A stretch of 64,000 nt of DNA from a virus (lineage: Duplodnaviria > Caudoviricetes). Position numbers and translations under genes: made by a program. Positions 31,680 to 59,848 of the stretch are shown piece after piece. The first letter of the stretch is position 1; each line of letters starts with the position of its first letter. Location: positions 32,001-96,000 of the IMG/VR virus record IMGVR_UViG_3300028833_000064; one strand, given 5' to 3'. The notes beneath the pieces were generated by a model. The model was given only the letters and a program-made list of their open reading frames with translations, ran no database searches and was not told the DNA's origin.

Positions 31680-32342
31680 TTAGAAAGCGAGGCGGGCGAC
31701 CAACCAGGGCTGGAAGTTCCAACTACCTTTTCCGTGAATGGAGAGTTTGGCAGGATTGTCGGTCACGTTGAAGAGCATGAGATTCACACCAACATGTACC
31801 ATAGGGGTAATCTTGTAATACACCTTCTGCTCGGTACAGAGATTGAATGTGTTCGGACCCCACGTGTCGAGATAACCCTCGTAGTAGATGTGGTCGAAGT
31901 CGGCGCTGCTATTGATGGAAAACTGCCAATTGTGGCCGCTGCCAAAGTCGTATCGGTACATAGGGGTGAGACTGAAACAGAAGTTACCCAGCAAGAGTTC
32001 GTATGCAAAACCGGCGTTAATCATATTATGGTCGGGCCAGTACATGGCGGTGGGAACCTTGAAGTCTGGAAAATCTGATGTCCGGAATCGGGTCTCCAAG
32101 TGTCCGAGGAAGTGGGAACCGGCGATTCGGTACTCTCCGTAGAGGATGCCGTAACCCACGGCCTGGTTGTTGGTCACTGTGAACTCATTGTACGAATACA
32201 CGTTGAAGTTGCTGTCTGACTTGAAAAAGTCGGCGACGAATTTCTGATTCCCGTCATAGGACTGATGCCACTGAATACTCTGGGCGTTTGCTGCTGTTGC
32301 CATCACAAAGACGGCGATGATTGTGAAAAGAACTTTCTTCAT
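31680..32342 (-). CDS. Outer-membrane beta-barrel (DUF5020/Tsx-like channel?)
   Basis: Signal peptide ANA-Q, aromatic alternating strands, C-terminal Phe (ARLAF). Confidence 0.65.
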   Translation of the reverse strand: MKKVLFTIIAVFVMATAANAQSIQWHQSYDGNQKFVADFFKSDSNFNVYSYNEFTVTNNQAVGYGILYGEYRIAGSHFLGHLETRFRTSDFPDFKVPTAMYWPDHNMINAGFAYELLLGNFCFSLTPMYRYDFGSGHNWQFSINSSADFDHIYYEGYLDTWGPNTFNLCTEQKVYYKITPMVHVGVNLMLFNVTDNPAKLSIHGKGSWNFQPWLVARLAF

Positions 32343-40855: not shown

Positions 40856-42676
40856 TTAATATGTTCCATTTTTATCAAATCGTTTCTCATACGAATTTAA
40901 GTCGCCGATAATCATATTGGTGGTTTCAACCAAATCGTTTACATCTTTTTGACGACCGTATGACTTTTTGGCATCGAAGATGTGTTTTACGTTGGCGATG
41001 TGAAAACCTTCCGAACATTTCAATTCACTGTCAAATTCCGAATCTGGTTCCTGCACCCATATGTTAAACTCGATATTGTTATATGGGAATATATATGGTT
41101 TATGTTTGATATGTGGAATTTTTATCTCTGGTTTTTGAGAAAACTGGAGTTTTTCAATTCCTCCATACATTTCAGTAAACACCTTTAGTTTATTTTCTGT
41201 TTCCTCATCACATTTTATTACAATATCGATGTCGTGGACGAATCTTCCAACGGGGAGAAGTCCTTGTTTCAAGAGGGCGATACTTCCAGTGACCATCACG
41301 TTTTCCGGAGATATTTTGAATCTTTTGGTAAAGGATGTAAGAGTTTTCAACATGAAGTCTGCATTTCTTTTTTGTGAGTCATAGAAGTTGTTCTTTGACT
41401 TTTCAATATCTTCCACCCTCTTTCTCTTGAAAAAGTTGTTTCGAAAACATATTGTGATATGTTTCACCCAATCTTCATCAACAGAATCACTGATGGTAGA
41501 ATTTTTACATTCGGTCTCCATCCTTTTAACCATATCTGATAGTCGAGCGTCAAGTTCCGAATACTTAAACTTACGTCTCCGGACATCGAGTAGGAAGTCA
41601 CGGTCTATGTTGGTTCTGTCGAGCAAGAGTCCCTTACCTTGTGCAATTTCTATGCACATTGCCACATTTCGAAAACAATGATACATATTCTTGACATCGT
41701 ACTTGTAATCTGGGTTTCCTTGTTTTTCGGCGACCATATTGGATTCGTAGCGTGCTTTGTTTCTCTTCTGCTTCCACTCCTCATACTCCTTGTATTTCCG
41801 GCAGTGTGTGCCGTATCCGTCGGCGTTATATGTCATCATGCAGATTGGTTCTTCCTCCTTTTGGGTCGAGCAAAGTCTGACTGTGTTAGACGTTCCGTCG
41901 TTGTTGATGATTCCACAATGACCTCCGAAAGGTTTTTCGGTCATCTTTACAACATAGTCAACCATGACACTGTATTCAGTCTGTTTTTGAAATCTATCCA
42001 TGAAATGAGAAACAGCGAACTTACCAAAACTTGTTTGTTTGTTTATCTCATCACCCATGTTTACGTTGGCGAGTCTCAGATGCTGACCGAAGTCATAGTA
42101 CATCAAGTAACAGTCTTTCATGTTCGTGAGGTTTGTCAGACCACAGCAATCTTGACGAAGACCGTTTCTTTTGAGCCATTCTTGGATGTTTATACTTCCT
42201 TGACGACCATCAAAGGTGAAACAGAAATCAAGTGGAGTCTTTCTCTCCATGTTCTCCATATCCCAATGAATTTTTTTCTCCTGTCCACGAGCCTTCTTTA
42301 CCTGAGATGAAGCGTATTCACCGAATGGTTTGAAACATTTCTTCGTTAAGAATTTGTAACCTATATTTCTGATATGTTCCTTGAACAACGGATGTTCATA
42401 CAGAATTTTATCATCGGGGACAAAAAAGGCTTCGAGTACTGCTGGGTTGGAATTCATGGCAAGTTTCATAAATTTGCCGAGTTCCCACCATTTGTTGTCG
42501 TTCTTCTCATCGGAGACTTCATCTTCGAAACCAAAGTCGAAATTGTTGTCCATGATATAAACTCCACCGGTGTCTATATCTGCACTTCCGTCGTCAAGAC
42601 TTGTGTTATATAGGTGACTTCCTCTCACATATTCAAAGAGAAGAAGACCTCTATTTCTTATATCTTCAAATGTCAT
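40856..42676 (-). CDS. RlaP/NrdC.11-like nucleotidyltransferase fused to a second nucleotidyltransferase domain
   Basis: RGSHLYNT..ADIDTGGVY..NPAVLE..KNMYHCFR; second TGSIAL..HDIDI..RQKDVND. Confidence 0.8.
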   Translation of the reverse strand: MTFEDIRNRGLLLFEYVRGSHLYNTSLDDGSADIDTGGVYIMDNNFDFGFEDEVSDEKNDNKWWELGKFMKLAMNSNPAVLEAFFVPDDKILYEHPLFKEHIRNIGYKFLTKKCFKPFGEYASSQVKKARGQEKKIHWDMENMERKTPLDFCFTFDGRQGSINIQEWLKRNGLRQDCCGLTNLTNMKDCYLMYYDFGQHLRLANVNMGDEINKQTSFGKFAVSHFMDRFQKQTEYSVMVDYVVKMTEKPFGGHCGIINNDGTSNTVRLCSTQKEEEPICMMTYNADGYGTHCRKYKEYEEWKQKRNKARYESNMVAEKQGNPDYKYDVKNMYHCFRNVAMCIEIAQGKGLLLDRTNIDRDFLLDVRRRKFKYSELDARLSDMVKRMETECKNSTISDSVDEDWVKHITICFRNNFFKRKRVEDIEKSKNNFYDSQKRNADFMLKTLTSFTKRFKISPENVMVTGSIALLKQGLLPVGRFVHDIDIVIKCDEETENKLKVFTEMYGGIEKLQFSQKPEIKIPHIKHKPYIFPYNNIEFNIWVQEPDSEFDSELKCSEGFHIANVKHIFDAKKSYGRQKDVNDLVETTNMIIGDLNSYEKRFDKNGTY

Positions 42677-42680
42677 TGTC

Positions 42681-43115
42681 TTATTGTATTTGATTGACTA
42701 AAATATTTTTGAGAGTCTTTCTCATATTCGGAAAGTACCTGTCCAATGTTAGTCCGTATGTGAATCCATCCATTTCGGTCAAGGTGTTTCCGTAGTTGTC
42801 GACAAATGTCGACGTACATTTCATCTTCTTTAAGTCTGGTGTATCTTCGAGTTCTATATAGAAGATGTGGAGGTCTTTATTCTGATTGTACTTTTGTCTT
42901 CCACAATCTTTAAAGAACTTAACGTTCAAATCTTTATAATCAAGACCCGTCTCTTCTTTCAATTCACGACATGCAGTATCAAACGGGTCTTCACCATCTT
43001 CGACATGACCTTTGGGAATATCCCAAAAACCATTATCTACAGGTTTGGCCGTAGGGTGACATTGGAGATACCCAACAGGTGTCTTTATAAGGAATCCAGC
43101 ACTTAATTGTTTCAT
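42681..43115 (-). CDS. NUDIX hydrolase
   Basis: GHVEDGEDPFDTACRELKEETGL. Confidence 0.92.
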   Translation of the reverse strand: MKQLSAGFLIKTPVGYLQCHPTAKPVDNGFWDIPKGHVEDGEDPFDTACRELKEETGLDYKDLNVKFFKDCGRQKYNQNKDLHIFYIELEDTPDLKKMKCTSTFVDNYGNTLTEMDGFTYGLTLDRYFPNMRKTLKNILVNQIQ

Positions 43116-43809: not shown

Positions 43810-44994
43810 TCAAATTTCGAAAATATCTTTCATTTTTTCAATAAGGTCGAGGTTTTCCCAAGGAAAGTATTTTATTCCGTCTTTTACATAACTTTTTCTT
43901 CCGAAGTGACCGTACTTTGCTGTCTCGAGATAGATTGGGTTGAGTAATTGCAATTTATCGATGATACCTCTTGGTGTGAAATCGAAATGCTTATGGAGTC
44001 TGTCTGCAATTTCAGCATCACTTATATCGATTTTGCAAGTTCCGTTGGTATTCACAAAGATTGAGATGGGTTGTGCCATGCCGATTGCATACGACACTTG
44101 GATTGTAACCTCGTCTGCAATTCCGGCAGCGACAAGGTTCTTGGCGATATATCTGCAAAAGTATGCAGCGCTTCTATCGACTTTGGATGGGTCTTTACCA
44201 GAGAACGCTCCCCCGCCATGAGGGCAGTGACCACCATAGGTGTCGACGATAATCTTACGTCCGGTCAAACCGGTATCACCGTGTGGACCTCCGATTACAA
44301 ATCTACCCGTTGGGTTTATATATAATTTATAATCATTGAAAAGGTCTGATACCCAAGATGGTACATCTTTTCGTACAATCAAGATTGCTTCTTGTATCAA
44401 TTCTCCGAGAACTTCCATAGAAAGTTTAGGAGAATGCTGTTGGGATATGATGATTGTATCGATTTTTACAGGTTTGTTGTTATCGTCATATTCTATGGTG
44501 ACTTGTGATTTGGCATCGGGGCGTAATCCGATTTCAGGATAGTTACGTCTCAACGTCTCCATTGTTTGGAGAAGTTTATGTGAGAGCATTATCTCAAGTG
44601 GCATATACTCTATTCCATCCTTGATGGCGTATCCGAACATTATACCTTGGTCTCCGGCACCTTGGTTGGGTTTGTTTACTCCTATGGCGATGTCGGGTGA
44701 CTGCTCGTGTATTGTGTTGATGACTGCACAGGAATGTCCGTCGAAATACAAATCTCCGTTGTCATATCCGATGTCTATGATTGTGTCTCTTACGGTTTTC
44801 TGTATATCGATATAACCGGTGGTCGTTACTTCACCGGAGACTACGGCGAGACCCGTTGTAACGAGTGTTTCACAGGCGACATGGGCGTTATTGTCTTGTT
44901 TCAACATTTCGTCAAGTATGGCATCAGATATTTGGTCTGCAACTTTGTCTGGGTGTCCGGACGACACTGATTCTGAAGTAAAAAATTTTGACAT
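43810..44994 (-). CDS. metK: S-adenosylmethionine synthetase
   Basis: [35 protein letters not shown]. Confidence 0.97.
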
Positions 44995-46037: not shown

Positions 46038-46481
46038 TTATTTTAGTTCTTTTATCATATAATAATGGTCATTATCAGAATGGTTATAACCCATTTGTTC
46101 CCAAAATCTTTTTGATATTCCGTAGTCATCATTTTCATCACGATGCTGTAAGATAATGAAATCAACCGGAGTTTTTTCTAGGTACTCTATCATTAATTTA
46201 CCATATCCTTGATGTCTGAATTTCCTTGACACTTCAAACGCTTCAATATACATACAGTATTTGGGTAAGGGTATTTGTAAATCGGTAAAAACATTGAAGA
46301 GAAAAAAGAAATCAAAATCTTCAATCATTATACTCACCCCACCGACAAATTGTCCCTTTTCGTTGTAAAACTCTATTTTTTTACGTATGTCTGAATTGAC
46401 ACCGTTGAACAAAACATCGGGGCAGTGCCTTATGGCTTCTATTGAAAACGTGTCAACTTTTTTTGGAAAGATTTTCATCAC
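46038..46481 (-). CDS. GNAT acetyltransferase
   Basis: FEV..FRHQGYGK, FWEQMGY. Confidence 0.8.
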   Translation of the reverse strand: MMKIFPKKVDTFSIEAIRHCPDVLFNGVNSDIRKKIEFYNEKGQFVGGVSIMIEDFDFFFLFNVFTDLQIPLPKYCMYIEAFEVSRKFRHQGYGKLMIEYLEKTPVDFIILQHRDENDDYGISKRFWEQMGYNHSDNDHYYMIKELK

Positions 46482-47299
46482 TCATCTATTAAGTCTTTTT
46501 CACGAAGTATGTCGTACAGTTTTTTAACGTCGAGACGGTATCTTGACTTGTACTCGGTTCCTCCATAGTAATCTGATAACCAAAATTCATCGATGTCTAC
46601 ACACTCGGAGAAAATTTTCTTGTATTGCAAGAACGTTATTGTTGGACAAATCTTTTCAAGTAATTCATCAAACTCTTCAAATGATTCTGGTTGTTCGTCT
46701 GGTTCTATGGTTTCTTCATAACCACCCCACGAACATAATGTTCCACCACGTGACCATTCCTTACTATATATATATTTTCCATTATCGTTGTCAATCAATG
46801 GTAAAAAGTTGTTGTTCCAGTTATTGTCCTTGAAAACATATCTGTGTTTGAACGAAAGATGAACATTTTTGTCCATATTATAGACAAATCCTCTTATTCT
46901 GTCTTCATCAACTTCCTCGAATTGGATATTGTTGATTGTTACAGAAACATTTCTGCCGTCTGCTCTACGGTTGATGTTTTCACGACAAGCATCTCTGTCT
47001 TCGTTCCAGTAGACAATCGTCAAATCGTGTCTAGCACCACCACATCTTTCAAAAAAATCGTGGGTTTCCTTTATGATGTCTTCTAGTTTTTTCTGTGTCG
47101 TTATAAGTGAGTCTATTACCAAGTTTCGTTTTAAGATACCCTTCAAACTGGATAAGACTTCACTGATTGGTTTGTACTTTCCATCGACAATGTAGTCGTC
47201 CATATGAACGATGGTAGTCCAGTCGTTCTCTAATCTTTTCGTATAGAACGTCTTTCCACTACCTGGTAGACCGTATAATATTGTTATATTCTTTGGCAT
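46478..47299 (-). CDS. Polynucleotide-kinase-like P-loop kinase + C-terminal domain
   Basis: GLPGSGKT, VIDS, lid C.ENINRR. Confidence 0.75.
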   Translation of the reverse strand: MPKNITILYGLPGSGKTFYTKRLENDWTTIVHMDDYIVDGKYKPISEVLSSLKGILKRNLVIDSLITTQKKLEDIIKETHDFFERCGGARHDLTIVYWNEDRDACRENINRRADGRNVSVTINNIQFEEVDEDRIRGFVYNMDKNVHLSFKHRYVFKDNNWNNNFLPLIDNDNGKYIYSKEWSRGGTLCSWGGYEETIEPDEQPESFEEFDELLEKICPTITFLQYKKIFSECVDIDEFWLSDYYGGTEYKSRYRLDVKKLYDILREKDLIDE

Positions 47300-47301
47300 A
47301 G

Positions 47302-48462
47302 TTATTCCTCTCTTTCTTCTTTTTTTCTTTTTATAGTTTCAAGTATGATTTCTGCAAACTTTATGTGCTCGTCATAGTTTACATCTTGTGAATGGTGTGT
47401 TGCATCCCCCCAAGTGAGTTGTAGTGACCAGAGTCCTCTTATCAAGGCGGCGATTTCAATAACTTCTTTTCTATATTTTGGACGGAAGTGTTCAAGAGAA
47501 TCCTCAAATTGACAAAGAATAAGTTCCGGCAATAGTATATAGTCTTGGTAGAAAAGTCCGTGAAATGGTTTTCGAATAAATGTGTACTCATAGTTGTTTT
47601 GCTTTCTACCATCACCATCACTTCCAGACGCCAAAAGAGTCGTTATTATGAAATCACGAACTTCTTTATCCTCTACATTACCATACTTTTTCAAAAGTTC
47701 ATTTTTTTTCTCCTCATCGTTGAACAGTATACTTTCTCGTTCCAACACAAATTCTAGGAATGATTTCCTATACTGCTCTGGAACCTCAACACCAATTGTT
47801 GAGCACAGTTCCTTTAAGTTTCTAATGGTTTTTCCATAATCATTAAAATTCTCCGGCAACCACACATAACACCGTTCCTTTAACATGGGAAGTGAATCGT
47901 GAGTCCAGTCAATTATCTCATAGTCGTGGTCATCTTTTCCAACACAATTTTTCTTATATCCGAGACTTTCGATGATTTCATGGGGTATTCTCCAAAATTC
48001 ATGGTCTTCGAGCATCTCATTTCCTACCGATACAAGATAGTCGAAAATATTCTCATGTTCCATGATAAAATCAAAAGTAATGTCGAAGTCTTTTCTATAG
48101 TTTAACTGTGCTTTGAAAAAATTTGTTTCTTTTATCTTTCTGATGATATCTTCCATTTTTTGTGAAAACGGTTCTCTATTTGAACGGTCATCACTTATAC
48201 TATTGACTATACTTTCGATATTCATTCCACAGAAAAAAGTTTCAAGACGTTTGACACCGGGTGTCATATCTACATTCTCAATTCCACCATAGTCGTTATA
48301 CTCTCCTCGAATTGGGACAGATATTGGTGTGAATGAATAACCTGGTGAAAATTCATCGGGTTCATTCATTGTGGTTGGCCGTATACCGACAATGACAACT
48401 ATTCTGTCACCATAAGTGATAGGTAAGTTTGAAAAATTTGCCGTAAAATTAAAACATCCCAT
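47302..48462 (-). CDS. Hypothetical phage protein
   Basis: MGCFN..SNLPI..G.YNDYG. Confidence 0.75.
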   Translation of the reverse strand: MGCFNFTANFSNLPITYGDRIVVIVGIRPTTMNEPDEFSPGYSFTPISVPIRGEYNDYGGIENVDMTPGVKRLETFFCGMNIESIVNSISDDRSNREPFSQKMEDIIRKIKETNFFKAQLNYRKDFDITFDFIMEHENIFDYLVSVGNEMLEDHEFWRIPHEIIESLGYKKNCVGKDDHDYEIIDWTHDSLPMLKERCYVWLPENFNDYGKTIRNLKELCSTIGVEVPEQYRKSFLEFVLERESILFNDEEKKNELLKKYGNVEDKEVRDFIITTLLASGSDGDGRKQNNYEYTFIRKPFHGLFYQDYILLPELILCQFEDSLEHFRPKYRKEVIEIAALIRGLWSLQLTWGDATHHSQDVNYDEHIKFAEIILETIKRKKEEREE

Positions 48463-48478: not shown

Positions 48479-48490
48479 AAAGATACTATT
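48479..48490 (-). promoter_or_regulatory. Class II promoter-like motif
   Basis: AATAGTATCTTT. Confidence 0.65.
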
Positions 48491-48511: not shown

Positions 48512-49600
48512 TTATACCTTTGGACTATCGTTGGTTATTACTTTCGAAAAAGATTTCTTGAACTCACTCTCTCTGTCCATCTCATCACAATGTGTGATTT
48601 CAACAATATAACTCTCTTCTCCACAATCTTCTTCAATCCTTTCTTTTAGTTCTCCAATATCAAGTTTAGAGTATTTGAACTCACCTTGTCCATCGTTAAA
48701 ATGATTTGTCCGGTCTTCTTTGATTCCAGTTGATATTACTGCTCGGTTTAACTGTGAAAACTCACCGTCACCATGTCGTGTAAGGTATGGTCTTGTTACA
48801 TAGTGTAGAAGAGTGTTGCAATTTTTTTCGGTCAATCCCATTTGATTCATTATTATTTTTGAATAACTTATTCCAGTATCTGATGGGGTTGTATCATAAG
48901 TATCTTTACCAGTGTCTTTTAAAAGTAACCCTTGACCATTTTCGAAAATAAAGTTGTCAAATTTAAATAGTCTTTCACTCTCTGCTGAAACGGGAACAGT
49001 GTTCTCGAACATGAATGTGCAGTCATTGATGAAGTGCCAAACTAGATTTGGGTCGTTCCATATTTTTTTCCATCCATCGGGTATGGTTATCTTTTTTTCG
49101 TAGTAACTCTTGACTTTCATCAAGTAGTCAAATCTCATCCGAACAGGAATATCATCACAAAAGTGGTCGAAACCCATTGTTGATGTTTCTTTGTATCTTG
49201 TGATTGTGTTCCATATTCCCATCCGACAGGAAGCGTGGGAACCTTTTAGTTCCTCCATTATAGAGTTTGCAATCATATCGAATGGGGTCGACCAGCGACA
49301 ATTTACGTCACGATAAGTCACAACCGGTTTAACAACCAACTCGTTCCATTCTTTTACAAATTGCATTGGGTTCAATATGAAAAAAGAAGAATAGTAGTTG
49401 GCTGCCCCGTAATATGTTCCGGAACCGAAGTGTTGAAAGGTGTGTTCTCCAACATCTGTTATCACGGAATGACCTCTTTGGGAACCTCCGTTTGTTAAGA
49501 TATTAAGGACTTTTTCACTTTCTTTGGTGTATTTCGCCACCACAGTTCCCTTTCCTTCGTCACCGTTGTTGCTGCCGACTACTATTCTTGCTGTTTTCAT
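48512..49600 (-). CDS. Divergent adenylosuccinate-synthetase (PurA)-family protein
   Basis: GDEGKG, GGSQRGH, FENGQG, TRHGDG, ITHCD. Confidence 0.85.
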   Translation of the reverse strand: MKTARIVVGSNNGDEGKGTVVAKYTKESEKVLNILTNGGSQRGHSVITDVGEHTFQHFGSGTYYGAANYYSSFFILNPMQFVKEWNELVVKPVVTYRDVNCRWSTPFDMIANSIMEELKGSHASCRMGIWNTITRYKETSTMGFDHFCDDIPVRMRFDYLMKVKSYYEKKITIPDGWKKIWNDPNLVWHFINDCTFMFENTVPVSAESERLFKFDNFIFENGQGLLLKDTGKDTYDTTPSDTGISYSKIIMNQMGLTEKNCNTLLHYVTRPYLTRHGDGEFSQLNRAVISTGIKEDRTNHFNDGQGEFKYSKLDIGELKERIEEDCGEESYIVEITHCDEMDRESEFKKSFSKVITNDSPKV

Positions 49601-49612
49601 TTGTTTGTTATT

Positions 49613-50491
49613 TTACCAAGTAATTTCACCGTTCTCGTTAATCATATTTTGAGCAGGAACGGTTTCATTTAAATTTGAACTACCTTCAATGGATTCATCA
49701 ATACATTCTTCAATTGTTTTTGACAAATTATTGATAGTAGAAACTTTAAGTCTATCTCCAAGTATTTGACCGAATGTGTTTTCAATTCCATTTTTATGAT
49801 GATAATATGAATTTGCATTATCGTCAACAGCAATATGGAAAACATCAAACTTTTCAATCACTGACTTATAGAGTTCCGGAGTTTCGATATCATTTTGTTC
49901 AGTCGAACCAATGATATTGTTAAGTTGTTTTTTGGGCAAATAAGGATTAAGTTCCTCGTCACCCATGGTGATAATGATACCCTTACGACCTTGTTCGTTG
50001 GCGTCGAGTTTGGTACGATTCAGTCCCATGTACCATGCTGCCGTGTAACTTTCGAAAGAATTGCCACCGCCGCCTTTTTCCATATAGATTTTGTCGAGAC
50101 TCTCGGCAATTCTTACATCACTCTCGAACTGAGACATCTGAATCGGTGCTTCATCATAGGCGAGGTCTCCAATACCCATCACACAAAATTCGATATCCTT
50201 ATACTTTTTGTATAAGTTAGACATAATCACTCCGAGAGCTTCGGCACACTCCTTACACGAGTTACCCATACTTCCTGTCACATCAAGCGCCAAGATTACT
50301 GGAATGGTATTAGGGTGTTCGTCAGAATTGACACACTCACGAATGGAGAATTTACATGGGTCGAGACTTGGGTCAAGGTATCTCATGGTGTATTCTTGAC
50401 CGGATACTCTACCCGATGAGGTGTCATAACTTTTGCCCAACGATGTACTGTAAATAGCATATGCTTTGGTTGACCAAGTTCCTGAACCCAT
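49613..50491 (-). CDS. vWA-domain protein
   Basis: MIDAS-like DVTGSM, GIGD, GGGGNSFESY, MGDE. Confidence 0.85.
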   Translation of the reverse strand: MGSGTWSTKAYAIYSTSLGKSYDTSSGRVSGQEYTMRYLDPSLDPCKFSIRECVNSDEHPNTIPVILALDVTGSMGNSCKECAEALGVIMSNLYKKYKDIEFCVMGIGDLAYDEAPIQMSQFESDVRIAESLDKIYMEKGGGGNSFESYTAAWYMGLNRTKLDANEQGRKGIIITMGDEELNPYLPKKQLNNIIGSTEQNDIETPELYKSVIEKFDVFHIAVDDNANSYYHHKNGIENTFGQILGDRLKVSTINNLSKTIEECIDESIEGSSNLNETVPAQNMINENGEITW

Positions 50492-50493
50492 AC

Positions 50494-51120
50494 TTAACCC
50501 TCCTCTTCATTAGTGTTAGTGGTGGTAGTGTCTTCATCTTCATCATCTTCGATGTTGAAGTCGAAATCAAACATTCCATCAAATGGGTTAGATGCCTTGT
50601 TACCCATCATCATGGACATCGCCATCATCTGTCCAAAGTTACCCATACCATTGGTGTTTCCACCACCCATCATCTGGGTCATCATCATCATCTTGACCAT
50701 GTTAGAAAGACCCTTACCATTCTTGAAGGCGTTGCCGAACATCGAGACAATCTTACCGTAGAAGTAAGTACTGCCCATGAAGATGTGGCGCTCAGGAATA
50801 ACCTCACGAATCTCGGAGTTCTCATAGTCGATGACCTTGATGGTCTTCTTTGTTGCCTCGATGACACATTTGGGTTTACCACCAACGAGGATGATGTCTC
50901 CAACCTCTACCTTATTAGTAGGAATAACGAAGAACATCTCATCACCAATATTAAAGCAGAAATTGGTGACATTGGTGAGTATACCCTTTTTGACATTGTA
51001 GGTCTTGTACTGACCATTACTGCACTGAACGGCGATACCGCCATTCATAGTTAGACGACATTTACCTGGTTCGGTCTTACCGAACATTCCGTTGAAAGAT
51101 TTTTGAACGTTTTCAAACAT
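50494..51120 (-). CDS. Hypothetical protein with Met/Gly-rich low-complexity tail
   Basis: MMMMTQMMGGG..MMAMSMMMG; 2 nt from the vWA gene. Confidence 0.75.
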   Translation of the reverse strand: MFENVQKSFNGMFGKTEPGKCRLTMNGGIAVQCSNGQYKTYNVKKGILTNVTNFCFNIGDEMFFVIPTNKVEVGDIILVGGKPKCVIEATKKTIKVIDYENSEIREVIPERHIFMGSTYFYGKIVSMFGNAFKNGKGLSNMVKMMMMTQMMGGGNTNGMGNFGQMMAMSMMMGNKASNPFDGMFDFDFNIEDDEDEDTTTTNTNEEEG

Positions 51121-51608: not shown

Positions 51609-52346
51609 TTAGAACAATGCCTCACCATAGTTTTGGTCTACATCTGGTTGTTTGATTCCGAGTATAAAGTCACATATCCAGTTCCTTGCATAGTCCTTTG
51701 AAATCATACTCCGGTCCTCAGAACACAAACCCGCTTGACCACTACTCTTAGATGAAAGAATGTTTTTAATAACTTTACTTTGTTGTCGTGTCTCACCGTC
51801 AAGAGGTTCACAGTTGATGAAAAAATATGCCGTAGGTTTCTTGAAGAAATCACCACGTTTTGTCCTGTCCATATCGACGAGTGTCGGAGCCATCACGAAG
51901 TTTGCTTTCAAGAATGTCTGCTCACTCCAAGGGTTTTCCATTATGAGTCTCAGACCCCTCATCTGTGCAACAGCAAGCATCTTTACAGCAAGACTGAAGA
52001 AGTATTCCCTGTTGTGGCTCCTCTCAAGAATCAAGTCTGTCTTTTCCTTCATTGTTTTCTTCCGATAATTCACACACGTCCAATACATAGACATCTGTGA
52101 CAAGGCGGAGAAGTAGATGCAAGGGAAGAAAGCCACTATCAAGTCATCCTTTGTTATGTTATCGAAGATAGAAGGTTTGTCATCGTAGGCATTCTCTATC
52201 TCCTTGAATAAATCATCTTGGTGGTCAGTCTCACCGAAATTGTTCTGAATGTCATAGTCTTCGGCCGGTATTCCGAGTTTAATAAACTCGTTTTTGAAAG
52301 TTCCGGACTGCTCGAAGAAACAATGAACCTTTCCTTTTATTACCAT
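51609..52346 (-). CDS. DNA cytosine-5 methyltransferase-like protein
   Basis: FEQSG (motif I variant), YDI, FPC, ENP, KKPT. Confidence 0.65.
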   Translation of the reverse strand: MVIKGKVHCFFEQSGTFKNEFIKLGIPAEDYDIQNNFGETDHQDDLFKEIENAYDDKPSIFDNITKDDLIVAFFPCIYFSALSQMSMYWTCVNYRKKTMKEKTDLILERSHNREYFFSLAVKMLAVAQMRGLRLIMENPWSEQTFLKANFVMAPTLVDMDRTKRGDFFKKPTAYFFINCEPLDGETRQQSKVIKNILSSKSSGQAGLCSEDRSMISKDYARNWICDFILGIKQPDVDQNYGEALF

Positions 52347-53347
52347 TAGAATTTTCTTTTGATTATATCTACAGCGAGCCGGTTGAGTTCTTTATTGACG
52401 ACTCTTTGCTCATTAGATGAAAGGTCGTTATACTCGGGATGGTCTTTTGTAAATTCCTCAAGAGTATCTGCTGAGAACTCTTTGATAAGAAGACCCATCT
52501 GCTTGGGTATCTCAATCTCACCGAGGTGTGACACGACATTGTTGATTCGTGCCTCAGTCACATACTGACCAATCACTGAGACGAGTTTGTTGCAAGTATC
52601 AGAGTACTCAACTTGAACCTTCTCTTTCTTTTCACTTTTCTCAAATTCGTTGAACTTCGGGTTCTTATTCTTGATGATGATTCTCTCACCGTTGGCGAAT
52701 CTGATGTCCTCAATGGGTTTGATTACAACACCTTCTGCATAGTTGTTCTCGAGTCTTGGATAACCGAGACGTTCACCAATCGTGCTGATGAAAATTGGGT
52801 CGTAAGCGAGACACTCATCAAGTGTACCACGGAAGAGTTCCTTGTTGTAGAAGAAACCGAACTCTTCGAAAAGACGGTTGCACTTATCAACACCGAGGTA
52901 GATATTCTTCTCACCGTCACTTACGAGAATATCAAAGGCATAGAACTGATGGTCTGGGCAGTACTGAATACCTTTCTGAATCTTCGGAACATTACTCTTA
53001 TACCCGTCATATCCACCACCAAAAAACTCACCGAACACTTGGATTTGGTTGATGTCCATCTCTTTCTTGAGTGTATTCATAATACTAATGACACCACCTT
53101 TTAGATTACATTCAGCAAAGTCCTGAAAACCATAGAACTTATCTTCTGGTGCAAGAACCGAACCACGTTTACCGGTCATAATTTGTCCAGAGTCATCTGT
53201 GATTACTGACGTGTTACACCCGTCAACTTTCTCCGATATGGAGAAAAGCATATTTGGACAACCAAGGAAGTTGAGACTCTCACGTACTTTCTCAATGTAT
53301 GCTTCCCTGTAACTATTTTCAATTGAGGTATATTTCTTAAAATCCAT
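52346..53347 (-). CDS. RNA ligase 2 (Rnl2 family)
   Basis: EKVDG, FGEFFG, FYAFDI, EGVVIKP, IKNKN..F.E, R..NV.S. Confidence 0.9.
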   Translation of the reverse strand: MDFKKYTSIENSYREAYIEKVRESLNFLGCPNMLFSISEKVDGCNTSVITDDSGQIMTGKRGSVLAPEDKFYGFQDFAECNLKGGVISIMNTLKKEMDINQIQVFGEFFGGGYDGYKSNVPKIQKGIQYCPDHQFYAFDILVSDGEKNIYLGVDKCNRLFEEFGFFYNKELFRGTLDECLAYDPIFISTIGERLGYPRLENNYAEGVVIKPIEDIRFANGERIIIKNKNPKFNEFEKSEKKEKVQVEYSDTCNKLVSVIGQYVTEARINNVVSHLGEIEIPKQMGLLIKEFSADTLEEFTKDHPEYNDLSSNEQRVVNKELNRLAVDIIKRKF

Positions 53348-53360
53348 AACTAAACTATAT

Positions 53361-54395
53361 TTAAACTTTAGTTTCTTTTTTCTTCACTATTAAAGATAAC
53401 AAAATTGAACCAAAAAGTATTCCTAAAATTATAAAAAGTGAAGATAATGTTGTAATTTCTATTCCAAATATCTCGTGGTTTATCATCTTTACTCCGACAA
53501 ACACAAGTAGAAATCCAAGTCCGTACTTCAACATCCAGAATTTGTCATTGACACCGCTAAACAAGAAGAACAACGACCTGAGACCCATGATTGCAAAAAT
53601 GTTGGAGAAATATATGACAAACGTATCTCTCGTCACCGAAAATGCCGCCGGTATGGAGTCGACTGCAAACACAAGGTCTGAGAACTCAATGACGAGTAGG
53701 ACGAGTAACAACGGGGTCATATGCAACATTCCATCGATGTCTGTAAGAAATTTGTGTCCGTCAAGTTTTTTCGATACATAAAAATGTTTGTTGGCGAACT
53801 TGACGATGGGATGGTCTTCTGTTTTCACATCACCATCGTCTTTACTATAAAACATTTTCACACCACTGAAGATGAGTACCACACCGAAGATTGCAAGTAT
53901 TATAGAGAATTTAGAAACAATTGTACCGAGTAAGAAGATGAATATAAATCTCATCACGATGGCGACCAAGATACCCCAAAACAAGACTCTGTGGTAGTAT
54001 ATCCGGTCGATTCCGAAACTGATGAACACCATCAACATCACAAATATATTGTCAATCGACAGTGATTTCTCCAACCAATAACCGGCCATATACTGCTCGA
54101 AGATTTCCCTTCTGTATATCTTCAGTGCTTCCGAATATTCCATACCAGGTTGGATAAGTTTTTCAAGTCCTGCATCCTTTGCATAATTCAAAAGACTCTC
54201 CATGTCGGTTATTCCATGAACCCACTCTGCATGGAACAACAAGACAAGACTGAACAGCATTGCCATTCCAATCCAAATTCCGGTCCAGATGGCCGCTTCC
54301 TTGATTCCAATCACATGGTCTTTTTTGTGGAAGACACCGAGGTCGAGGGCGAGCATTGCCGTTATAAATACCAAAAATATGATAAAAAATGTCAT
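53361..54395 (-). CDS. TerC/Alx family membrane protein
   Basis: EKSLSIDNIFV, DLVFAVDSIPA, SNIFAIMGLRSL. Confidence 0.93.
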   Translation of the reverse strand: MTFFIIFLVFITAMLALDLGVFHKKDHVIGIKEAAIWTGIWIGMAMLFSLVLLFHAEWVHGITDMESLLNYAKDAGLEKLIQPGMEYSEALKIYRREIFEQYMAGYWLEKSLSIDNIFVMLMVFISFGIDRIYYHRVLFWGILVAIVMRFIFIFLLGTIVSKFSIILAIFGVVLIFSGVKMFYSKDDGDVKTEDHPIVKFANKHFYVSKKLDGHKFLTDIDGMLHMTPLLLVLLVIEFSDLVFAVDSIPAAFSVTRDTFVIYFSNIFAIMGLRSLFFLFSGVNDKFWMLKYGLGFLLVFVGVKMINHEIFGIEITTLSSLFIILGILFGSILLSLIVKKKETKV

Positions 54396-58969: not shown

Positions 58970-59848
58970 TTAAATTGTTTCTAAAATACTTTTCACATAA
59001 TCAAGATGTTCCTGAGTCATCTGCTTACCAGCATAATTGACAAGGAGGAATGTCTTGAGGACATCATCGTCAGTCGTTCTGCAATTCATAGTCGCCAGTG
59101 TGAAGCATGTAACGAAGCGAAAATCATGTCTGGCAATTAACGACATATCTGAGAAGTACTTACCATTAAGGTCGGGATACTTGTCATTTACAAACTCAAT
59201 AAGAGCATTCAGACGCTGTTTTCCATCCACGATGTCGTAGAAAGCAATTTCTTCATCATCGTTTTTCAAAGTTTTCTCAACTTCGTCGTATGAATGTTCC
59301 CTTAATACAATCTTACCACAGTCTACACCACGGTAGACTGACTCAATGAGTTGTTTTTTCTCATCAAGAGACCAACAGAAGTCACGCTGGTAATATTGCT
59401 TTTCACCATCTTTGTTGATAACGTATGGATTCCAATTCAGAAACTTGACTGGCAAGATTCTTCCAGTTTTGGATTTTACTGTCCATTCATTCTCGGGTCT
59501 TTGACCATATTCTCCAATCGTGTTGAGTAAAGAACTGATACAACAAGGCATAAAATTTATTTTCGGCATTTGAATTGTTTCCGAGAATGGATTGTAACCC
59601 ACATACCAAGGGTCTTTCTCCAAGTCCGATATATTCAACTCAAAGGTTTCCTCGTTACATGTTATAGAACTATCTTTGATTCTTACAATACATTTTCCAT
59701 TTGATAAAATTTCTTCAACAATGGCGTGTATCGTCTTATTCTTTTCTTCAAACGGTTTAACCAATTCAAGTGGAAACTCAACATAGTCACCAACTTGTAT
59801 TGGAGTATCCATATATTCCTTAGCCTCTTTTGATAGTTTGTCTGCCAT
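58970..59848 (-). CDS. DUF262 domain protein with extra N-terminal domain
   Basis: YQRDFCW, IVDGKQRL, FLLVN; paralog of 25773. Confidence 0.8.
   Translation of the reverse strand: MADKLSKEAKEYMDTPIQVGDYVEFPLELVKPFEEKNKTIHAIVEEILSNGKCIVRIKDSSITCNEETFELNISDLEKDPWYVGYNPFSETIQMPKINFMPCCISSLLNTIGEYGQRPENEWTVKSKTGRILPVKFLNWNPYVINKDGEKQYYQRDFCWSLDEKKQLIESVYRGVDCGKIVLREHSYDEVEKTLKNDDEEIAFYDIVDGKQRLNALIEFVNDKYPDLNGKYFSDMSLIARHDFRFVTCFTLATMNCRTTDDDVLKTFLLVNYAGKQMTQEHLDYVKSILETI

Follow-up and report, generated by a model that had tools for sequence, protein, structure and literature searches.

A widespread phage module that pairs a divergent PurA-fold protein with a vWA protein and recurs beside NAD+/ADP-ribose genes

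What reaction could a phage enzyme catalyze if it has kept the catalytic residues of the adenylosuccinate synthetase PurA and exchanged the loop that binds aspartate? The question is raised by three minus-strand genes in a 64,000-nt stretch of viral DNA (Duplodnaviria; Caudoviricetes; IMG/VR record IMGVR_UViG_3300028833_000064, positions 32,001 to 96,000; the whole stretch is called the window here). In order of transcription, the genes encode a Met-rich protein, a vWA protein with a putative metal-ion-dependent adhesion site (MIDAS), and a PurA-like protein. The 185-kb record is that of a large gut phage (63% complete by CheckV), and the metagenome-assembled genome (MAG) bins of its relatives are Bacteroidales. 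The open reading frames (ORFs) are tightly packed, with gaps of 2 nt (50492-50493) and 12 nt (49601-49612), just as a first-pass annotation had described them. That annotation had proposed a new nucleotide-modifying system, and every PurA-like motif that it quoted is present in the protein. We regard it as practically certain that the three genes belong to a real, conserved module and that the PurA-like protein falls in a clade of its own. From its residue pattern, this protein very probably functions neither as PurA nor as PurZ.

A profile scan of IMG/VR gave 79 loci. In nearly all of them, the Met-rich, vWA, and PurA-like genes follow one another in this order, mostly end to end (PurA-like identity 33-93%). 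A further 40 loci come from MAG contigs of gut and rumen, in bins assigned to Bacteroidales, Treponema, and Lachnospiraceae. The roughly 120 loci represent 58 lineages, and their flanking genes are unrelated. The order of all three genes is kept at PurA-like identities of 31-93%, which is far beyond chance. Clustering of 1774 neighboring ORFs from 123 loci showed that the triad families alone are widespread, in 58, 56, and 49 lineages. Among cultured phages, the PurA-like and vWA queries each match 219 records (201/200 from Mycobacterium phages of cluster C for the two queries, 10 from Rhizobium, 6 from Vibrio, and one gut phage). In these, too, the gene immediately ahead of the PurA-like one is that of the vWA protein. 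Against 1.84 billion representatives, the PurA-like profile found 2125 clusters (50% identity) at E<1e-30. A megablast search with 12 kb of sequence found no match among cultured phages. In the Mycobacterium cluster C phage Alice, the place of the Met-rich gene is taken by gp246, a J-domain/kinase-like gene (Pkinase match; HPD motif visible), with gp247 as the vWA and gp249 as the PurA-like gene. We considered a cellular origin of the family and set it aside for the present branch: all 40 matches in genome contigs are MAG contigs from gut or rumen, and most have the phage-type triad. A Lachnospiraceae subset with NrtR and host-like neighbors may be chromosomal.

The motif AATAGTATCTTT recurs in the window phage. 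Here it follows the stop codon of the PurA-like gene and precedes the ATG of the gene downstream, and the transcription unit of the triad therefore appears to end there. A sequence scan found no terminator-like sites inside the triad. A scan for sigma-70 promoters and terminators gave no signal above shuffled sequences and is ill-suited to a Bacteroidota phage.

The PurA-like protein and 32 further members of its family were aligned with the PurA of E. coli, with PurA from four MAGs, and with four proteins of the PurZ/PurZ0 type. Its motifs are GDEGKG (residues 13-18), QRGH (41-44), ASCRMGIW (123-130), ENGQG (220), TNHFNDGQGEFK (298-309), and THCD (336-339). The family retains Asp13, Lys16, His41, and Gln224 in invariant columns, and it retains TR.G.G and a Thr like T239. 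The aspartate loop TTGRxRR of PurA has become TNxxNxxQGxx(R/K)Y; in the window protein, TNHFNDGQGEFK stands for T300-T301-G-R303-x-R305, and the first Thr and possibly one basic residue alone align. The PurA segment T128-T129-x-x-GIGP reads S-C-x-x-GIW(E/N). The guanine-specific TKLD (K331, D333) is THCD in the window and TH.(D/N)E family-wide, the Lys being lost to His and the Asp alternating with Asn. At the contacts to the 5′-phosphate of inosine monophosphate (IMP), N38 is replaced by Gln, T129 by Cys (Thr in the Vibrio phage, Val in two members), and T239 aligns with a conserved TPS, in pocket loops modeled at a pLDDT below 50. The replacements are themselves nearly invariant, although the family diverges to approximately 25% identity, a pattern that speaks for another specific substrate and against decay. 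The same alignment bears out the first-pass annotation in two respects: the catalytic Asp of GDEGKG and the His of GH are kept, and the aspartate loop, TKLD, and GTTGRGIG are replaced. Its claim of a truncated C-terminus holds in part. The protein runs about 5 residues past the site of the E. coli S414-P417 motif, against about 15 in the E. coli enzyme, and shorter internal loops account for most of the 70-residue shortfall.

The match to PF00709 is clear (63.6 bits, cut-off 27; E 1.9e-17) and covers profile positions 1-273 of 416 only, leaving the C-terminal third of the profile unmatched. The NCBIfam equivalog models for PurA score 31-48 bits against cut-offs of 368-700 (TIGR00184, 42.7 against 395.55; NF002223, 47.9 against 402). 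An AlphaFold2 model built from 14 homologues (pLDDT 74.8, pTM 0.79) has canonical PurA as its best structural matches (Foldseek E 4e-14, TM approximately 0.67); PurZ and PurZ0 are weaker matches, and CTP synthase is a marginal one.

In a quick maximum-likelihood tree (LG+C20, 42 rows; unrooted as to the origin of the clade, no archaeal short PurA included), a branch with SH-aLRT 99 sets all 33 family members, including the Alice, Rhizobium, and Vibrio proteins, apart from PurA and PurZ. The phylogeny for which the first-pass annotation had called thus yields a separate clade. It agrees with that annotation's statement that the protein is not PurZ, which has Ser at position 13, as does PurZ0 (PMC12884076; also our alignment), in the place of the Asp kept here. 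The phages differ as well. PurZ of phiVC8 matches 204 cultured-phage records (Arthrobacter, small Vibrio phages, Microbacterium, and Acinetobacter) with no overlap with the PurA-like set. A survey from 2026 assigned 147 of 481 phage PF00709 homologues to PurZ/PurZ0 and used the remainder as a root only (PMC12884076). The PurA-like family is therefore, by present counts, the largest group of phage PurA homologues, and it is an uncharacterized one. It is found in 219 cultured phages, PurZ in 204, and metagenomes add over 2000 clusters of the family at 50% identity.

The vWA protein, which matches phrog_2971 (E 1.4e-47), is matched by no Pfam vWA model, and sequence and profile searches against PDB sequences gave no match. 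Its AlphaFold2 model (pLDDT 80, pTM 0.84) has a vWA fold at residues 58-277. All 386 Foldseek matches at E<=1e-3 are vWA/integrin I domains. The structure matches given by VIA are likewise all vWA domains, with Z up to 15.0 (root-mean-square deviation 3.6 over 197 residues), and they include the vWA domains of BchD, NorD, and BatB at Z 11-12. The vWA call of the first reading is upheld by this predicted structure, a Rossmann-like fold, which has DxTxS where the MIDAS motif is DxSxS. In the alignment, DxTxS, GGGGN..ES, and MGDE are invariant at the expected MIDAS strands (GGGGN at 140-144 and MGDE at 176-179 in the window protein). The N-terminal extension (residues 1-57) begins with an invariant MGxG, and the chain ends in an invariant I-x-W-COOH (GEITW-COOH in the window).

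This C-terminal tail links the vWA protein to the Met-rich one. The ending [ILVM]-x-W is found on 90 of 106 vWA ORFs, and Trp is the last residue of 138 of the 1774 ORFs in the loci (approximately 21 expected). The vWA protein has the tail in 104/104 loci with this type of Met-rich protein and in 0/10 loci without it. From this pattern, the N-domain of the Met-rich protein may be where the tail docks. Within its own genome, the vWA protein of the window is alone in having such a tail.

Elsewhere, unrelated small ORFs in or beside the module share the I-x-W-COOH ending: all eight members of a 105-aa family (loci L004, L030, L031, L035, and L049) and ORFs of 78, 114, and 146 aa (L075:7127-7363; L049:5340-5684; L035:5542-5982). 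The vWA protein gp247 of Alice (L003:2942-4726) is interrupted by an intein-like insert of approximately 290 aa just before the MIDAS GDE strand (RKGY/C...SSN/CIFIGDE), with weak, sub-threshold matches to Pfam Hint and Intein_splicing. Insert-free alleles exist, because other cluster C phages (for example, BeanWater) align uninterrupted across the site.

The Met-rich protein contains 21 Met in 208 residues, 15 of them in the 51-residue stretch 135-185. Nearly all of the 54 invariant columns in its alignment lie within the N-domain. Of the 114 loci judged, 104 have its gene upstream of that for the vWA protein, and proteins of the same architecture precede the vWA gene in Vibrio phage pv27 (16% Met) and in a Rhizobium phage (13% Met). 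No Pfam, NCBIfam, or PADLOC model matches it, and two Atlas feature searches returned its own unnamed viral clusters only. The PADLOC models of known anti-phage defense proteins, run against five proteins at E<=0.01, gave no match. Longer proteins carry the N-domain and a Met-rich tail behind an N-terminal extension of 130-250 aa: gp39 of Bacillus phage G (L083:3599-4639), gp208 of vB_BceM_WH1 (L084:3269-4744; annotated as a virion structural protein), and P0391 (406 aa). Neither Bacillus phage matches the vWA or PurA-like query (E<=1e-5); the Met-rich family is therefore wider than the triad. On one metagenomic contig, P0408 (L144:8001-9221) joins residues 1-185 of a Met-rich protein of the L064 type to a NAMPT-like C-terminal half. 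Rather than a true fusion of domains, it is more plausibly an L064-type island altered by a deletion or by assembly, in which approximately 4.9 kb with the vWA, PurA-like, and Prs-like genes is lost from an otherwise intact set of NAD genes.

The context of most weight, which the first-pass annotation did not contain, is the repeated embedding of the module in clusters of genes for nicotinamide adenine dinucleotide (NAD+) and ADP-ribose metabolism. At least 19 of the 58 lineages have such a gene within 6 kb of the triad. An NrtR-like gene (NUDIX + NrtR_WHD) lies directly downstream of the PurA-like gene in 16 loci of 13 lineages of Lachnospiraceae/Clostridiales type. In the L064 lineage (17 loci), the genes run PncA, Met-rich, vWA, PurA-like, Prs-like, 122 aa, NAMPT-like, and further on KptA, NADAR, NadE, and NMNAT. 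All are on one strand, and the start codon of the Prs-like gene (PF14572) abuts the stop codon of the PurA-like gene. The triad stands between Prs-like and NAMPT-like (PF18127+PF04095) genes in L034, and Prs-like, NAMPT-like, NadE, and NADAR genes immediately precede it in L049. The Prs-like and NAMPT-like genes correspond to the published NARP1 pair (bioRxiv 10.1101/2024.02.11.579819). A NADAR gene is two genes upstream of the module in Vibrio pv27, and phosphoribosyltransferase-like and NMNAT/NUDIX genes are upstream of it in the Rhizobium phage. Because NARP1-type, Preiss-Handler, NADAR, and NrtR genes are met next to the module again and again, and in varied arrangements, the NAD+, ADP-ribose, and adenylate economy during infection is the best-supported setting for its role, and we lean slightly towards an NAD/ADP-ribose-linked role of the module.

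In the reading that we favor, the window holds one copy of a widespread, undescribed module of which the PurA-like protein would be the catalytic part. It would retain the first half-reaction of the PurA family, that is, the phosphorylation of the ring carbonyl of a bound nucleotide by a nucleoside triphosphate (NTP) through Asp13, Lys16, His41, and Gln224. The kept residues (base, acid, and O6 contacts) serve phosphoryl transfer, and the lost ones bind the carboxylates of aspartate, so the simplest chemistry would be activation of the oxo group followed by a different nucleophile. The aspartate pocket would have been swapped for a different, equally conserved loop; because another nucleophile would be joined, the enzyme would be neither adenylosuccinate synthetase nor PurZ. 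The vWA/MIDAS protein would be its obligate working partner. In the gut-phage branch, the Met-rich protein would add a third subunit to the complex, with the N-domain probably receiving the IxW tail. The module would act in the adenine-nucleotide, NAD+, and ADP-ribose economy of the infected cell, presumably to the benefit of the phage, as an accessory to the reconstitution of NAD+ once host defenses have destroyed it. Taken as a whole, this reading seems to us as apt to be right as wrong. Its most specific element, activation of the purine 6-oxo group followed by attack of a non-aspartate amine, is a tentative assignment that we hold to be doubtful. The targeting of the enzyme by the vWA protein and the scaffold role of the Met-rich protein, which the first-pass annotation had added, are conjectural as well.

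Several observations count against the favored reading. The pocket is not readable from the PurA-like model, because both substrate loops (residues 39-61 and 276-308) have a pLDDT below 50. The statistic that links the tail to the Met-rich protein is weak, because the ten tail-less loci come from only three to four independent clades. The Prs-like match falls just below the Pfam cut-off (26.7 against 27 bits). By BLAST, 39 of the 58 lineages have no NAD neighbor, and the count of 19 is a raw one, uncorrected for the base rate in random 12-kb stretches of such phages. The lineage of the window itself (window and L007) has no NAD gene within 6 kb. Its neighbors are RNA-repair, methylation, and S-adenosylmethionine genes (Rnl2, DNA methyltransferase, TerC, MetK, GNAT, P-loop kinase-like, and a NUDIX/RlaP pair). 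The 185-kb record has no NAPRTase or Macro genes, and one distant NADAR and two CTP_transf_like genes are its only NAD-type genes. Counter-defense, one of the settings suggested by the first-pass annotation, is a reasonable one.

The loss of the dicarboxylate-binding arginines and their replacement by a conserved polar N/N/Q loop would also suit an enzyme that activates a purine nucleotide and joins it to the amine of a protein. That amine could belong to the vWA protein, through its invariant N-terminal Gly, or to a client brought by an IxW tail, with the vWA and Met-rich proteins serving as substrate or adaptor. The invariant vWA termini (MGxG... and ...IxW-COOH), the same tail on unrelated small ORFs in or beside the module, the obligate vWA partnership, and an intein-like insert at the MIDAS strand, a type of site usual for inteins, all point this way. 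The near-invariant N-terminus leaves no covariation to read, and the genomic context points to small-molecule NAD metabolism. We consider it unlikely. Equally hard to favor is its fuller form, in which 6-oxo phosphorylation of a purine nucleotide and transfer of the purine to the vWA Gly, or to a client docked on the Met-rich protein by an IxW tail, would give an N6-linked protein-nucleotide adduct that phages and some bacteria would use in the contest over NAD+ and ADP-ribose. If the PurA-like protein were instead a non-catalytic or regulatory NTPase, it would be a dimerizing SIMIBI-type GTPase/ATPase that drives vWA-dependent assembly or remodeling, much as in the MoxR AAA+/vWA pairs, with the Met-rich protein as a holdase or client binder. 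vWA proteins commonly pair with NTPases, and the likeness of the window protein to BchD, NorD, and BatB fits this. The J-domain/kinase-like first gene of other branches (Alice gp246) suggests recruitment of chaperones, and Met-rich segments are known binders of hydrophobic peptides. Asp13, His41, and Gln224 serve attack on a nucleotide substrate and not NTP hydrolysis alone, they are invariant in a very divergent family, and the nucleotide-phosphate contacts are conservatively replaced rather than lost. From these comparisons, such a role would be quite improbable.

The two roles already known for the fold fit less well. The first would be base modification of the PurZ kind, with a non-standard purine (N6-substituted or 2-amino) made for the phage genome. 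A PurA paralogue in a phage, the PurZ label of PHROG 1211, and the DNA methyltransferase and S-adenosylmethionine synthetase nearby in the window could be read in this way. The Asp13 kept where every PurZ and PurZ0 has Ser, the separate clade, and the disjoint phage sets speak against it, as does the lack of any DatZ/MazZ/DpoZ-type gene among the conserved neighbors. Some Lachnospiraceae MAG contigs also carry the pair, with NrtR and host-type genes next to it, a poor fit to the chemistry of virion DNA. Nothing found points to base modification of virion DNA, the use that the first-pass annotation had entertained, and we judge it very unlikely. Least of all do we expect an ordinary auxiliary PurA that boosts AMP synthesis from IMP, aspartate, and GTP. 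PF00709 above its cut-off and canonical PurA as the best structural match are what such an enzyme would give, but the aspartate loop, T129, and K331 are replaced, the score is approximately 45 bits where the equivalog cut-offs are approximately 400, the C-terminal third is off the Pfam profile, no purB lies alongside, and the vWA partner is obligate.

The coordinates of the triad, its motifs, and the surrounding genes are collected in the table.

Table. Positions of the triad, its sequence features, and neighboring genes in the window.
Feature	Position (nt)	Strand	Basis
Met-rich protein, 208 aa	50494..51120	minus	ORF, alignment of homologues
Conserved N-domain of Met-rich protein, residues 1-134	50719-51120	minus	alignment
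Met/Gly/Asn-rich low-complexity stretch, residues 135-185	50566-50718	minus	composition
FDGMFDF motif and acidic tail, residues 186-208	50497-50565	minus	sequence
vWA/MIDAS protein, 292 aa	49613..50491	minus	AlphaFold2 model, structure matches, invariant columns
Putative MIDAS D70-x-T72-x-S74 of vWA protein (DVTGS, DxTxS)	50270-50284	minus	invariant columns
Putative PurA-fold NTP-dependent ligase-like enzyme, 362 aa	48512..49600	minus	PF00709, AlphaFold2 model, motif map, tree
P-loop of PurA-like protein, residues 12-18	49547-49567	minus	motif map
Rewritten "aspartate" loop of PurA-like protein, residues 296-309	48674-48715	minus	motif map
AATAGTATCTTT motif	48479..48490	minus	sequence read; 16 nt before ATG of downstream 386-aa gene
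386-aa protein, directly downstream of PurA-like gene	47302-48462	minus	phrog_5960 on first 67 residues only, no family match
273-aa protein with N-terminal P-loop (AAA_33-like, below cut-off), then 147-aa GNAT acetyltransferase-like protein	46038-47299	minus	
T4 Rnl2-like RNA ligase, 606-aa RlaP-type nucleotidyltransferase, 144-aa NUDIX (RNA-repair type, surround triad)	40856-43115 and 52346-53347	minus	
TerC-family membrane protein	53361-54395	minus	
S-adenosylmethionine synthetase (MetK), full-length	43810-44994	minus	
292-aa protein with GmrSD_N (DUF262-type) domain	58970-59848	minus	

The 386-aa protein is kept only in the nearest lineages (L007 and L009-L011), at 44-47% identity. Outside the window, the same phage record has its NADAR gene at G000:C1:157032-157421 (E 1.1e-27), 75 kb from the triad.

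We found no description of the module in the literature, with limited coverage of subscription journals in the search. The Met-rich variant as a conserved third gene, the presence of the module in phages of Proteobacteria, the association with the IxW tail, the NARP1-flanked arrangements, and the intein-like insert at the MIDAS strand of a mycobacteriophage vWA protein are new here. The family behind PurZ and Z-DNA may thus hold a third chemistry, with an obligate vWA partner. The module is found repeatedly beside, and in one lineage between, the genes by which phages rebuild NAD+ after immune NADases have acted. Working out its reaction could add a step to NAD+ counter-defense or reveal a new modification of nucleotides or proteins. 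Direct tests are within reach, since Mycobacterium phages that can be grown on M. smegmatis mc2 155 make up over 200 of the carriers.

With PurA (EC 6.3.4.4; PF00709, TIGR00184; E. coli PDB 1ADE/1CG1), the PurA-like protein shares the fold, the P-loop GDEGKG, the GH with His41, the E.GQG with Gln224, TR.G.G, and the T239-like Thr. It differs from PurA in being 70 aa shorter, in the replaced loop, in N38 to Gln and K331 to His, in its separate clade, in equivalog scores of about a tenth of the cut-off, and in always having a vWA partner. PurZ and PurZ0, of the 2-aminoadenine pathway of S-2L, phiVC8, SH-Ab 15497, and Arthrobacter phages, are likewise short, phage-borne PurA paralogues. In PurZ, position 13 is Ser and the TT...RR aspartate loop is kept, whereas the PurA-like protein has kept the Asp and lost the loop. 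PurZ is found in small siphoviruses and podoviruses with datZ, mazZ, or dutZ, and the PurA-like protein in a non-overlapping set of large phages. The MoxR AAA+/vWA pairs (BchI-BchD, NorQ-NorD, CbbQ-CbbO, and RavA-ViaA) resemble the triad in that a gene for an NTP-binding protein lies beside one for a MIDAS vWA protein, and the vWA domain itself resembles those of BchD and NorD. The NTPase in these pairs is an AAA+ ring, whereas that of the triad has the PurA fold with the residues for attack on the substrate intact. No MoxR-type AAA+ gene is found among the conserved neighbors of the 123 loci, the scope of that search. To NARP1 (Adps + Namat) and NARP2 (Nampt + Nmnat), the likeness is one of gene neighborhood: three lineages have a Prs-like/NAMPT-like pair around the triad or next to it, and PncA, NadE, NMNAT, NADAR, and NrtR genes adjoin it in others. 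The triad proteins match none of the NARP families Adps (PF14572), Namat/Nampt (PF18127+PF04095), and Nmnat. The published NARP pathways have no reaction that needs such an enzyme, and many carriers, including the window, have no nearby NARP gene. A further parallel is the Alice-type variant of Mycobacterium cluster C, in which the vWA and PurA-like families are those of the window and are encoded in the order found there. It differs in its J-domain/kinase-like first gene, in a vWA protein that ends without the IxW tail, and, in Alice, in the intein-like insert.

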